This document shows positions 58,969 through 62,602 of a stretch of DNA of 64,000 bases, piece by piece; position 1 is the first letter of the stretch, and every line of letters starts with the position of its first letter. Below the pieces are notes generated by a model that was not told where the DNA came from, did not search any database, and worked only from the letters and a program-made list of their open reading frames with translations. Source of the DNA: a virus; the IMG/VR virus record IMGVR_UViG_3300032242_001941, positions 32,001-96,000 of that record; one strand, 5' to 3'. A program made the position numbers and the translations under genes.

Positions 58969-59085
58969 ATTGTTATTAAAAAAATCAATAAGCGTTATTA
59001 AAATTATTATTGAAAAAATTAATAAAAACCGTTGATCTTATTGTTAAATACTATTACAATACTATTTTACTTTAAGGAGATGTCA

Positions 59086-59535
59086 ATGAGTATTACTATC
59101 AAAAATCTTGAATCGGCATTGGCTGGTGAGTCACAAGCTCACATCAAGTATCGTTATTTCGCAAAGATTGCACGTGAAGAAGGCTACGAAGATGTTGCCC
59201 GTCATTTTGAGTACACAGCAGATCAAGAAATTCTACACGCATGGGGACATTTGGAATTGCTTATCGGCAAGCCTACAACCAAAGAGTGTTTGGAAAAAGC
59301 CATTGCAGGTGAAACTGAAGAGTTCACACACATGTATCCAACCATGCTTGCGGAAGCAGTCGAAGAAGGTAATCAACAGGCTGCTATCGAAGCCAAGCAC
59401 CAGATTGCGGAATCTAAAGAACATGCTGAACAATTTGCCGCAGTGTTGGCCAAAGCTGAAAAACGTTTTGCGGCACTACAACGAGTAGAGAAGCGTCATG
59501 CCGAATCATATCAACGAGTCATGGAGGCACTATAA
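59086..59535 (+). CDS. Rubrerythrin (ferritin-like)
   Basis: NL..A.AGES.A..KY..FA..A, E..HA, E..H di-iron ligands. Confidence 0.92.
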   Translation: MSITIKNLESALAGESQAHIKYRYFAKIAREEGYEDVARHFEYTADQEILHAWGHLELLIGKPTTKECLEKAIAGETEEFTHMYPTMLAEAVEEGNQQAAIEAKHQIAESKEHAEQFAAVLAKAEKRFAALQRVEKRHAESYQRVMEAL

Positions 59536-59663
59536 TGGAACACGTATGCGTAATCTGTGGTCACGTCCACAATGAAGAATTAGAAGGTAAATGGGAGGAT
59601 CTACCAGAAGACTTTCCTTGTCCTGAGTGTGGCGGATTCAAGCAAGATTATATTGAGATGTAA
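59535..59663 (+). CDS. Rubredoxin
   Basis: Translates MEHVCVICGHVH...WEDLPEDFPCPECG; TAATG-coupled to rubrerythrin. Confidence 0.9.
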   Translation: MEHVCVICGHVHNEELEGKWEDLPEDFPCPECGGFKQDYIEM

Positions 59664-59742
59664 CTAAACAGTCACACTAGCGATCTTAAATAACTCAACC
59701 GGACACAAAGATAGAGTGTCTCTGGAGCTCGTAACCAGAACC

Positions 59743-59766
59743 AAAAGGACTCAGGTCCTTTTTCTT
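59743..59766 (+). terminator. Intrinsic terminator
   Basis: AAAAGGAC-TCAG-GTCCTTTT followed by T. Confidence 0.75.
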
Positions 59767-59835
59767 TGTCACAATTCTTTGGTTGACTTTTGATATATAC
59801 TATGTTACAGTTATATTACAAAAGGAGGATTAGTT

Positions 59836-59994
59836 ATGAAACAAAAGAAATTAATTTCTAAATTGTATCAGGCTTGTCTAGACCACGATACTAAAAAGGT
59901 TCAAGAACTCAAGAAAAAAGAGTTTGCTAAAATCTTTAAACACAAGGCCCAAGGCAAATCATTTGATACCAAATGGCATGTAGTTACGGTGTAA
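59836..59994 (+). CDS. Small basic protein
   Basis: AGGAGG RBS; [18 protein letters not shown]... Confidence 0.65.
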
Positions 59995-60011
59995 CAAATC
60001 CGTAACAAGTT
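59990..60011 (+). promoter_or_regulatory. Pho-box-like tandem repeat
   Basis: TGTAACAAATC/CGTAACAAGTT with 11-bp period, upstream of the PlcP-like gene. Confidence 0.55.
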
Positions 60012-60039
60012 TTCTCTGGCATTTTGGTTAAATATTGCT

Positions 60040-60864
60040 ATGCCAGAGAAAACTTACCGTTCAATCTTTATCTCGGATGTTCATCTTGGCACTCGCGACT
60101 GCAAGGCCGAAGCCTTAAATAATTTTCTCAAACACAACACCTGCGAAACCCTATATCTAGTAGGCGACATAATCGACGCATGGAAAATTCAACAAAATAA
60201 ATGGCGCTGGAAACAAAGCCATACCAATGTTGTACGTAGAATACTAGGACATGCCAAACGTGGCACTAGAGTAATCTATGTAGCCGGCAACCATGATGAA
60301 TTCCTCCGCCCGCTTATACCCTACGGCATGGGCTTTGGCGCAGTAGAAATTGTAAATCAAACAGAACACATAGGTCTAGATGGCAAGCACTATCTGGTCA
60401 CTCACGGTGACTTGTTTGATGGCATTACTAGACTGGCCCCTTGGCTGAGTTTTTTAGGAGATAAACTTTATGACTTTGTTCTCGACCTTAACAGTCGCTT
60501 TAATTGGATACGTCACCGTATGGGTTTTGGTTATTGGAGTTTGTCTAAGTATCTCAAGCATAAAGTTAAGAAAGCCGCTGACTTTATGTTTCAGTTTGAG
60601 CTTAATCTTGCTCGCTATTGTCACAAGCGCGGTTATGATGGCGTGATCTGTGGACATATACATCATGCAGAAATCAAAGAAATAGATGGTATCATTTATA
60701 TGAATGATGGTGATTGGGTTGAGTCGATGACTGCCCTGGTTGAAAATTACAATGGATCCTGGGCGATAGTTACCTGGACCAAGGAGCACGACGATGTGGA
60801 TACTAATACTGTTAGCAGTGAACATAAACAATCCCGCCGACGTCCCGGGAAGAATAAGCCTTGA
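60040..60864 (+). CDS. PlcP-like phospholipase C / LpxH-family metallophosphoesterase
   Basis: ISDVHLG, LVGDIID, GNHDE, HGDLFD, CGHIH, NDGDWVES. Confidence 0.85.
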   Translation: MPEKTYRSIFISDVHLGTRDCKAEALNNFLKHNTCETLYLVGDIIDAWKIQQNKWRWKQSHTNVVRRILGHAKRGTRVIYVAGNHDEFLRPLIPYGMGFGAVEIVNQTEHIGLDGKHYLVTHGDLFDGITRLAPWLSFLGDKLYDFVLDLNSRFNWIRHRMGFGYWSLSKYLKHKVKKAADFMFQFELNLARYCHKRGYDGVICGHIHHAEIKEIDGIIYMNDGDWVESMTALVENYNGSWAIVTWTKEHDDVDTNTVSSEHKQSRRRPGKNKP

Positions 60865-60967
60865 GTTTGCCACAGAACGAGCGTGTGAGTCAGCTCGTGA
60901 GTCAGTTAAATACTGGCTCAAGTTTGAAGGGTTTCGGGTCCAATCACAATGTCAAAAACAATCTTAG
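60794..60967 (+). CDS. Small exported two-Cys protein
   Basis: AAGGAG RBS; MWILILLAV...F.TE.AC...QC. Confidence 0.5.
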   Translation: MWILILLAVNINNPADVPGRISLEFATERACESARESVKYWLKFEGFRVQSQCQKQS

Positions 60968-61956
60968 TAGTTACCGATAATGTTGCCGATCAAGTCAACG
61001 GAGTGGTCACAACTTTCAAAAACTTGGAAGATCAGGCTAGCCTGGCTGGCGATCGTATTGTTTATATTGATCCCGGGCAGTTCCCTCATTTTGATTGCCC
61101 TGGTTATCCTGAAGTTAAAATCTGCTGGCCACACGGCATTAGCAAGAAGATTAAGGCGCTACAGCCGGATTATATTCACATCGCCACAGAAGGCCCTGTA
61201 GGTCTATTTGCCCGGTGGTGGTGTGAGCGTAATGGGATTCCTTACAACACTAGCTACCACACTGATTTTGCCAAGTTCTTAAAGAAAATGTATCACATAC
61301 CCGAGTCCGTGACTTGGTGGTATCTACGTTGGTTCCATAAGAACAGTCATCGTGTGCTAGTTACTACAGAAAGCATACGGCAAGACTTAGTGTCACGTGG
61401 ATTTGCTAATCTGCGTGTATGGACTCGCGGTGTAGATAGGACTATTTTTAACGGCACACATCGTGGAGAAACTGTAGCTGGTCGTCCTATGCTATTGAGT
61501 GTAGGTCGTGTTAGTGTTGAAAAAGGCCTAGATGATTTTTGTCAATTAGATATTCCGGGTGCTACCAAAATTGTAGTTGGAGATGGTCCATATCGACGAG
61601 ACTTAGAACGCAGGTACCCAGACATACATTTTGTAGGAGCCAAAAAAGGAACGCAATTAGCTCGTTACTATGCTCAGGCCGATGTGTTTGTTTTTCCTAG
61701 TCGGGCCGACACCTTTGGAGTGGTCAATATTGAATCACTGGCTTGTGGAACTCCGGTAGCGGCCTACCCTGTGCCCGGACCTATAGATATTGTTGAACCC
61801 GGACTAACTGGATTCCTTAACAACAATTTACGATTGGCAGTAGAGCAGTGTTTGACCTTAGACCGCGGCGCGGTAGAAGATGCCAGTTTGAAGTGGACTT
61901 GGGCAGAGTGTTGGCGTATATTTGAAGAAAACTTGATAGACTGTTCTGTAGCATAA
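60949..61956 (+). CDS. GT4 glycosyltransferase (Agt-like glycolipid synthase)
   Basis: QVNGVVTT, HIATEGPVG, TSYHT, VGRVS.EK, DTFG.V..E.LACGTPV. Confidence 0.9.
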   Translation: MSKTILVVTDNVADQVNGVVTTFKNLEDQASLAGDRIVYIDPGQFPHFDCPGYPEVKICWPHGISKKIKALQPDYIHIATEGPVGLFARWWCERNGIPYNTSYHTDFAKFLKKMYHIPESVTWWYLRWFHKNSHRVLVTTESIRQDLVSRGFANLRVWTRGVDRTIFNGTHRGETVAGRPMLLSVGRVSVEKGLDDFCQLDIPGATKIVVGDGPYRRDLERRYPDIHFVGAKKGTQLARYYAQADVFVFPSRADTFGVVNIESLACGTPVAAYPVPGPIDIVEPGLTGFLNNNLRLAVEQCLTLDRGAVEDASLKWTWAECWRIFEENLIDCSVA

Positions 61957-62070
61957 AAACAACACATTTAAAGCCCCGTAAAAGGGGCTTTTTTGTGGGT
62001 TTACCAAAAGGTTGACCAAAAATGCCCAATTTGTTATACTATTATTATAGTGAACATAAAGGAGCAGACA
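61947..62070 (+). repeat. About 120-bp regulatory repeat, copy 2
   Basis: Matches 40957-41079; AAAGCCCC-GTAAAA-GGGGCTTT stem; TTGACC(62012)-17bp-TATACT. Confidence 0.88.
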
Positions 62071-62602
62071 ATGTCAAAACTTACAGCATACACAGTAGAA
62101 ATTTATAAAGCTGATCGCCGTGTTAAAGAAGGCCAGCGGCTGGTTGAAAAGCGTGACTTTGATCCAGTGACTCGTGACTACATTGACACAGTGGTTGAAC
62201 GACTTTCGGGCAAAGGCATCACCATCAAGTTACACGAAACCTTTGTAACTAAAAAGAACCTAATAGGCGGTAAAGAGTTCACCGAGCGTTATGATACTCC
62301 ATACTTTTGCTCGCCTGCATCTGAATCTTACTGGAGCATGTAATATGTTAAAAGAATTCAACGAAATCCAAAAGACCGAACAGGCTATTCGTGGCCCGCA
62401 ATTTGACCGCAAGCTTCACGGTGGTCTGTTCGACCGTGGCAGTGCCGACAGTTATTATAGTCGTCCGCAGGACCCGCACTGGTATCCAGACGGTAGCTAC
62501 AACGGAACTCGTATTGATCAGCTGAACCAGTATGAAATCGCCGAATACATGGCTGGCTACGAGCATAACGAGCAGTTTGGCCACAAAAAAAGCTACGATT
62601 AA
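62071..62602 (+). CDS. Two early hypothetical ORFs (62071-62343, 62345-62602)
   Basis: RBSs; N...G..F.E...TP..CSP.SE.YWS and HGG.FDRG.ADSYY motifs typical of phage early proteins. Confidence 0.7.

Follow-up and report, generated by a model that had tools for sequence, protein, structure and literature searches.

A predicted phosphate-responsive PlcP-Agt lipid remodeling module in a giant uncultured freshwater phage

INTRODUCTION

PhoB-regulated plcP-agt systems for membrane lipid renovation have been described in several bacteria; examples are PA3219-PA3218 of Pseudomonas aeruginosa, SMc00171 of Sinorhizobium meliloti, MED193_17359 of Phaeobacter, PB7211_983/960 of Pelagibacter HTCC7211, and BCAL2364-2365 of Burkholderia cenocepacia (PMC4796936, PMC8528852, PMC13691135). 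In P. aeruginosa, the gene that follows plcP encodes Agt1 (PA3218), a proven monoglucosyl-diacylglycerol (MGDG) synthase (PMC8528852). Phage genes can also fall under the host PhoBR system, as in the cyanophages, where pstS and phoA of P-SSM2 and the S-PM2d set are such phosphate genes (PMC10976474). Here we describe a plcP-agt gene pair, assigned by sequence, in a 64,000-nucleotide stretch of viral DNA (the window) that comprises bases 32001 to 96000 of the 111.6-kb IMG/VR virus record IMGVR_UViG_3300032242_001941, for which CheckV gives a completeness of 32%. Taking the enzymes, a PhoB-type control, and a phosphorus benefit together as one reading, we consider it likely that the pair is a phage copy of the bacterial PlcP-Agt lipid renovation operon and serves a giant uncultured lake phage as an auxiliary metabolic module. 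Ribonucleotide reductase, GroEL, and tail-fiber proteins are among the other proteins encoded in the window, and close relatives of its plcP are found on viral contigs of up to 524 kb.

Both enzymes are already known, as is the principle of PhoB-controlled phage genes. The new parts are the viral lipid-remodeling cargo, a promoter design in which TAAATA precedes a probably leaderless start, a clamp helix at the plcP start, and a small RNA motif. Phospholipids are a sizable phosphorus store in phosphorus-starved cells, and in phosphate-poor lakes a virus with a genome of about 350 kb has a high demand for phosphorus. If phages do run a PlcP-Agt pathway, infection would drive membrane lipid composition and phosphorus flow in both fresh and marine waters. 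We found no description of a phage-encoded PlcP or of a PlcP-Agt pair in the literature searched. In virus surveys and phage genome papers, the gene appears as lpxH among the genes for lipopolysaccharide (LPS) synthesis (PMC13384950, PMC10653327), and a survey of pelagimyophages assigns phage glycosyltransferases to O-antigen modification. On the assignment proposed here, surveys that count this very common gene as lpxH in LPS biosynthesis misassign it.

RESULTS AND DISCUSSION

The phosphoesterase is assigned to PlcP rather than LpxH

The phosphoesterase gene lies on the plus strand at positions 60040 to 60864 of the window and encodes a protein of 274 amino acids (aa) that matches the Pfam families Metallophos and Metallophos_2. 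On the same strand, 84 nt 3′ of it, begins a gene for a GT4 glycosyltransferase (60949 to 61956; 335 aa; Glyco_transf_4 and Glycos_transf_1). A first-pass annotation made by a model from the letters alone had described such a phosphoesterase closely followed by a GT4 open reading frame (ORF) and had read the pair as PlcP-like and Agt-like; the positions and Pfam matches agree with that description, and both assignments held up in the comparisons below. Automatic JGI and GenBank names are instead UDP-2,3-diacylglucosamine hydrolase. If that label, which is also the label used in virus surveys, were right, LpxH and an LPS or capsule glycosyltransferase would alter lipid A or LPS and thereby the cell surface, for example to block superinfection.

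The best NCBIfam match of the plcP product is indeed LpxH, at scores far under the cut-offs (48.3 versus 134 bits for NF003743; 39.4 versus 190 bits for TIGR01854), and the curated cut-off for membership in the LpxH equivalog is not reached. TIGR01854 scores in gammaproteobacteria are bimodal: 39 of 41 sampled genomes contain one gene at 177 to 340 bits, the true LpxH, and second genes in some of the same genomes score 33 to 46 bits, as against 38.5 bits for the window protein. Alphaproteobacteria, which generally make lipid A with LpxI and not LpxH, have a homolog at E ≤ 1e-10 in 109 of the 301 genomes sampled, about a third, mostly as one full-length match at 43 to 56% identity. These homologs are hard to reconcile with an LpxH function. 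Each of the two tallies takes in one unpublished genome (G248 and G347), and neither genome entered the alignments or trees.

In pairwise comparison, the identity of the window protein is 57% with the P. aeruginosa PA3219 ortholog (E 3e-94) and 44% with S. meliloti PlcP, versus 23% across 120 residues with Escherichia coli LpxH (E 1e-6). The named anchors were chromosome records filed as plasmids, from P. aeruginosa, where the gene order is plcP, glycosyltransferase, adenylate cyclase, and from S. meliloti. Between these two references, identity is 46.6%, in agreement with the value of 46% given by Jones et al. for PA3219 and S. meliloti PlcP (PMC8528852). In a tree of 74 rows (17 LpxH and 57 PlcP type), the LpxH and PlcP-type rows are split by a long branch with 100% support, and the window protein falls inside the PlcP clade. 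The phage rows form one clade (99%), which joins P. aeruginosa PlcP and two cultured-phage homologs (97%). The phylogeny thus already contradicts the LpxH label.

All of the metal-ligand motifs (DVH, GDIID, GNHD, HGD, and GHIHH) are present in the window protein and align with those of characterized PlcPs, and the ligand residues are invariant in the family alignment (A2). The protein also carries three motifs found in PlcP and absent from LpxH, WxQSHTNVxRR, YWSLSxYLK, and GDWVESxTAL. An AlphaFold model (pLDDT 78) has a phosphoesterase core, a helical cap or insertion at residues 124 to 196, and a disordered basic tail at 249 to 274. The solved structures nearest to this model are LpxH-lipid X complexes (E 4e-11; TM 0.5 to 0.6), which speaks for LpxH; to our knowledge, no structure of a PlcP has been solved. 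LpxH (UDP-2,3-diacylglucosamine diphosphatase; PDB 5B49, 5K8K, and 6PH9) shares with the window protein a calcineurin-type fold, a helical lipid-binding insertion, and the same metal-ligand motifs, and differs from it by clade, by identity, by family cut-off, and by the PlcP-specific motifs. Judged by its sequence, the phosphoesterase is PlcP and not LpxH. The nature of its partner, which is Agt-like over its full length, points the same way, and we regard an LpxH-based change of the cell surface as very improbable.

Relatives of this plcP are encoded on more than 597 viral contigs, the best 80 of them at 80 to 94% identity, and more than 8,000 database proteins are related at the scoring limit. 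Two cultured T4-like phages have homologs, Pelagibacter phage Mosig EXVC030M (Mosig_00120; 48.5% identity) and Synechococcus phage S-SRM01 (QPX48289; 36.5% identity). In Mosig, as in the window, the start of the gene reads TAAATA-N5-ATG, and a divergent pstS adjoins it. Both homologs are annotated as LpxH and, unlike the window gene, have no annotated adjoining glycosyltransferase.

The partner gene resembles Agt and its position is conserved

The GT4 protein aligns over its full length with Agt1 (40% identity over 331 columns; E 5e-85), and the pairwise alignment reveals motifs common to both. Agt is not among the NCBIfam models, and the lipid glycosyltransferase models of NCBIfam score far under their cut-offs on this protein. 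By its similarity to Agt1, the GT4 protein is Agt-like and a candidate diacylglycerol glycosyltransferase. Three bacterial metagenome-assembled genomes (MAGs) contain the same adjacent pair, with plcP products 52 to 54% and GT4 products 43 to 44% identical to the window proteins.

Among the 72 phage loci with enough downstream sequence to be evaluated, a glycosyltransferase follows plcP in 69. It is a GT4 in 35 of them, directly after plcP in 32 and behind a gene for a RimK-type ATP-grasp protein in 3 (L022:2069-2959, L026:5749-6543, and L042:5749-6642). An unrelated GT2 of about 240 aa takes the place in 34, and the last 3 loci have no glycosyltransferase. Since two unrelated transferase families occupy the same position, we argue that glycosylation acts on the product of PlcP as its acceptor. 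The same alternatives of GT4 and GT2 type adjoining bacterial plcP were described by Sebastian et al.

A search of genome contigs with a single plcP protein yielded four loci. One of them is an 18.5-kb contig from a Haliscomenobacter MAG (NZ_JBBAKG010000110.1) that encodes a PlcP at 81% and a GT4 at 53% identity; it also contains the RNA motif described below and part of a gene for DNA polymerase III alpha. It looks like phage DNA that was mis-binned into a bacterial MAG.

A phased repeat and TAAATA precede plcP

The first-pass annotation had also pointed to GTAACA repeated at 11-bp spacing upstream of plcP, and the repeat is exact (59991 to 59996 and 60002 to 60007). Its reading as a Pho-box-like element is weak if the repeat is taken by itself: with at most one mismatch allowed, the window contains 2 matches to the repeat where 0.48 are expected, and 2 are also reached in 6 of 100 shuffled sequences. 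Support for that reading comes from phased repeats with TAAATA at related loci and at phage pstS genes, from canonical boxes, and from the rarity of the composite site. The predicted promoter, P2, extends from 59990 to 60034 on the plus strand and consists of the half-sites TGTAAC (59990 to 59995) and CGTAAC (60001 to 60006), at −39 and −28 from TAAATA (60029 to 60034), which is followed by 5 nt and the plcP ATG.

The regions upstream of plcP at 63 distinct loci share one layout without a Shine-Dalgarno sequence, and TAAATA-N5-ATG is found at plcP in 41 of 49 distinct loci. As a usual gene start, TAAATA-N5-ATG was rejected, with only 2 cases on the plus strand of the window. Half-site statistics were drawn from 47 dereplicated plcP upstream regions from other phage contigs. 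None lacks a half-site of the form [TC]GT[AC]A[CT]; the half-sites are placed almost exclusively at −39/−38, −28/−27, or −17 from an invariant TAAATA, and the −28/−27 position is occupied in 43. Two half-sites stand exactly 11 bp apart in 28 regions (shuffled mean, 0.011), and the spacers between half-sites are not conserved. Canonical TGTCAC-N5-TGTCAT, the classical Pho box of proteobacteria, is present in several homologous promoters, and loci L054, L063, L045, and L073 contain canonical TGTCAY boxes. A proximal geometry, with half-sites at −28 and −17 from TAAATA, is found in the pstS promoters, in L054-type loci, and in a second predicted promoter of the window, P1.

The composite site, defined as two half-sites, 9 to 12 nt, and TAARTA, occurs 4 times in 1.64 Mb of phage genomes, and a control pattern occurs 0 times. 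The box was also considered as a general phage promoter element and rejected as such; the loose repeat occurs at the rate of the control pattern across five phage genomes. With TAAATA only 5 nt before the ATG and no Shine-Dalgarno sequence between them, the spacing suggests that the plcP transcript is probably leaderless.

The same box precedes pstS in related phages

pstS is also present in 11 of 80 related loci. All 10 distinct phage pstS promoters have two or three phased half-sites, 11 nt, TAAATA, and then a leader of 25 to 35 nt with a Shine-Dalgarno sequence. Because TAAATA is followed there by such a leader, it is a promoter element and not a translation signal. Because every one of these promoters has the same box as plcP, the box is tied to a hallmark gene of the Pho regulon. 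On a small MAG contig, the order is pstS, box, small ORF, plcP, GT4.

In the intergenic region between pstS and plcP of phage Mosig (L001:4842-4994), there are five YTTAAC repeats, two of them 11 bp apart, together with the TAAATA-N5-ATG already mentioned. These repeats, which differ from those of the window, may be a SAR11-type version of the same promoter.

Pho boxes typically substitute for a −35 element and stop some 10 bp short of the −10 element. No OmpR/PhoB-type DNA-binding domain (Trans_reg_C) is encoded in the five phage genomes searched, three of which are 98 to 100% complete, and any OmpR/PhoB-type response regulator binding here would therefore be the host's. The half-sites are most likely bound by the phosphorylated PhoB-type response regulator of the host.

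Several points weigh against PhoB-type control. The half-sites in the window read TGTAAC, CGTAAC, and, in P1, AGTCAC, versus the enterobacterial CTGTCAT, and TGTAAC agrees with this E. coli core at about 4 of 6 positions; the consensus is enterobacterial and may not be that of the host. The half-sites of P2 lie one helical turn upstream of the canonical −28/−17 positions. TAAATA resembles the core of T4-type late promoters (TATAAATA). Such a core is read by gp55 and not by sigma-70, and PhoB activates through region 4 of sigma-70, so that action of PhoB at a late-type promoter would need explaining. pstS was not found in the five phage genomes searched as a whole, including this 32%-complete record, and the pstS link therefore rests on related contigs. 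Finally, predicted phage Pho boxes often fail in electrophoretic mobility shift assays, as a cyanophage study found (PMC10976474).

The departure of TGTAAY from CTGTCAT, the late-type TAAATA, and the unreliability of predicted boxes would also fit an arrangement in which PlcP and Agt are as proposed and the repeats serve as operator for a regulator other than PhoB, encoded by the phage or by the host, that times a small phage regulon from a late-type core. So would the sharing of the box with a structured RNA and with a 217-aa protein of unassigned function (see below). Against such an operator stand the presence of the box at every phage pstS found and the canonical TGTCAC-N5-TGTCAT in homologous promoters. 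The PhoB/OmpR arrangement consists of direct repeats with an 11-bp period, the last of which ends 11 nt upstream of the −10 element (PMC4415409). Moreover, the three phage genomes that are 98 to 100% complete encode no winged-helix response regulator domain, and the box is far too rare for a temporal promoter class. On balance, we think a regulator other than PhoB unlikely, and we favor control by the host PhoB.

A model for phosphate-responsive lipid remodeling

In the model that we propose, low phosphate would activate host PhoB, which on the phased half-sites would recruit RNA polymerase to TAAATA; the half-sites would stand in for the −35 element, with TAAATA as the −10 element. Such a design would place a −10 element of the phage and a leaderless start under a response regulator of the host. 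Transcription from P2 would begin at or next to the ATG and yield a leaderless plcP-agt mRNA ending at a terminator-like hairpin at 61970 to 61996 on the plus strand (AAAGCCCC/GGGGCTTT plus a T run), which was read directly from the sequence and is not listed by the terminator scan. PlcP is expected to be a peripheral phosphoesterase of the calcineurin type that depends on Mn and has a lipid-binding cap like that of LpxH, and it would remove the phosphorylated head group from host glycerophospholipids, leaving diacylglycerol. The Agt-type GT4 would then move a sugar from a UDP-sugar to diacylglycerol to give a phosphorus-free glycolipid, which would keep the membrane intact, and the freed head-group phosphate could enter phage nucleotide and DNA synthesis. 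Beyond family membership, these enzymatic steps are carried over by analogy from the bacterial pathway (PMC4796936, PMC8528852, PMC13691135). The model agrees with the first-pass annotation, in which host PhoB sensing serves to release membrane phosphate for the large phage genome and the membrane stays intact. A look for expression data covering 59500 to 62100 yielded DNA contigs and no RNA data set.

The enzymes that would swap lipid head groups sit behind the same control site as the phosphate uptake gene of related phages, and for this reason the host membrane is probably the source from which phosphorus is drawn for the virus. Lipid remodeling could also be real and bring its main benefit elsewhere, through membrane properties or receptors (phage exclusion, or resistance to grazers or peptides) or through support for a large load of virion assembly. 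In bacteria, lipid remodeling alters phage attachment, predation, and antibiotic tolerance (PMC9938194, PMC9457565, PMC8528852), and the exchange of GT4 for GT2 implies that it may matter which lipid is produced. The co-regulation with pstS, and the fact that the two genes are often neighbors, point on the other hand to phosphorus economy. A benefit of another kind is compatible with the phosphorus benefit and does not exclude it; as the main benefit, we judge it improbable, and we retain phosphorus supply as the preferred explanation.

The phage module resembles the bacterial plcP-agt operon in its two enzyme families and their order, at 57% and 40% identity to the P. aeruginosa pair, in the phased direct repeats upstream, and in that a transferase of GT2/GT21 type can replace the GT4 partner. 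Unlike the bacterial operon, it is found on a giant phage of lytic type and on related viral contigs that number in the hundreds; its half-site is mostly TGTAAY instead of CTGTCAT; its putative −10 element, TAAATA, is invariant and stands 5 nt from the ATG, without a leader; and it has a covarying helix at the start, a small conserved ORF, and a structured RNA, and no dagK. Like the PhoBR-controlled genes of cyanophages, it would be a set of phage auxiliary genes under the host regulator of phosphate starvation, here by prediction, and related contigs carry pstS behind the same box. It differs from them in that its cargo is membrane lipid remodeling and not phosphate uptake, and in the sequence of the box and the design of the promoter.

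A possible clamp helix at the plcP start

A perfect 16-bp inverted repeat on the plus strand (60007 to 60055, pairing 60007 to 60022 with 60040 to 60055) encloses TAAATA and pairs the ATG and codons 2 to 5 of plcP. Its RNA fold has a free energy of −29.6 kcal/mol (z −6.4). Rfam matches to the repeat were rejected as chance, miRNA-like hits only. The 16-bp perfect stem is limited to the subclade of the window. Most other loci have a different helix of 11 bp, in which bases just before and into TAAATA pair with codons 6 to 9. In an alignment of 31 sequences (A3), this helix is 96.8% paired with 5 covarying pairs, and switches among serine codons (TCT, AGT, AGC, and TCA) are matched by upstream changes.

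An mRNA starting at the ATG from P2 would lack the 5′ arm, so the helix would form only in read-through transcripts, for example from the promoter matches at 59783 to 59817. In such longer transcripts, it would hide the plcP start, which has no Shine-Dalgarno sequence, and so insulate plcP, which would then be translated mainly from the phosphate starvation promoter. An RNase III site, or a start codon presented in the loop, is also possible.

Promoter P1 and a conserved two-hairpin RNA

The promoter P1 is predicted 330 bp upstream of P2, at 59659 to 59692 on the plus strand. It consists of TGTAAC (59659 to 59664), 5 nt, AGTCAC (59670 to 59675), 11 nt, and TAAATA (59687 to 59692), in the proximal −28/−17 geometry, and it is the only match of the composite pattern in the 111-kb record (control pattern, 0). 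P1 should drive a small structured RNA, as its predicted start, at about 59699, is at the 5′ edge of this RNA. A P1-like arrangement also precedes the RNA motif in L004, L005, L008, L009, and L026.

The conserved RNA (59700 to 59738, plus strand) has two stems, stem 1 (59702 to 59706 with 59716 to 59720) and stem 2 (59722 to 59725 with 59735 to 59738), a loop-loop pair (59715 with 59729), and an invariant loop, CGUAACC. In an alignment of 26 sequences (A1), 95% of cells are paired, compared with 31 to 42% in slid controls, and covariation is seen at 7 pairs; none of the 26 sequences has lost the loop-loop pair (AU, 11; GC, 11; GU, 3; CG, 1). An intrinsic terminator follows the motif at 59743 to 59768 on the plus strand (AAAAGGAC/GTCCTTTT plus a T run).

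A covariance model of the RNA (R1) has 37 matches in 838 kb of loci; all share the strand of plcP and flank the operon, immediately 5′ of plcP or immediately 3′ of the transferase gene. One copy is present in each of 3 of the 5 whole phage genomes, never more than one per genome. The motif has no match in Rfam, and the model has three weak matches, of about 25 bits, in 151 gammaproteobacteria, which we take as chance. In the complete 524-kb relative (G001), the sole other canonical box with TAAATA drives the 217-aa ORF mentioned above (L085:1501-2235, equivalent to G001:83911-84645). The single copy of the RNA motif in that genome (G001:84681-84730) lies directly 3′ of this ORF and about 100 kb from plcP. 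No Pfam family was found for the 217-aa ORF, for the small upstream ORF, or for two downstream ORFs.

The invariant loop CGUAACC repeats the DNA half-site CGTAAC, and for this reason an RNA decoy is conceivable. We put forward only tentatively, and with some doubt, that the phage has a small private phosphate starvation regulon with two undescribed RNA devices. One would be the two-hairpin, loop-loop RNA of about 40 nt, acting as a riboswitch, small RNA, or decoy and tied to the pstS/plcP unit or to the box promoter; the other would be the clamp helix, which would keep plcP silent in read-through transcripts and leave its translation to the leaderless mRNA of the Pho-type promoter alone.

Other elements of the locus

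Between the RNA and plcP lies a small basic ORF of 52 aa with a strong Shine-Dalgarno sequence (59836 to 59994, plus strand), whose TAA stop falls inside the first half-site of P2. Roughly half of the related loci have this ORF conserved in front of plcP (tblastn, 50 to 90% identity; about 38 loci). Two sigma-70-like promoter matches precede it at 59783 to 59817 on the plus strand, TTGACT-17-TACAGT and TTGATA-16-TATATT, as consensus matches only.

Immediately 5′ of P1, genes for rubrerythrin (59032 to 59535) and a 42-aa rubredoxin (59535 to 59663) lie on the plus strand and look like an oxidative stress pair of the phage. Between plcP and agt, at 60885 to 60912 on the plus strand, stand two copies of GTGAGTCAG at a distance of 12 bp, with TTAAATA immediately behind them, as a possible internal promoter. 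In front of the agt ATG, an obvious Shine-Dalgarno sequence is absent.

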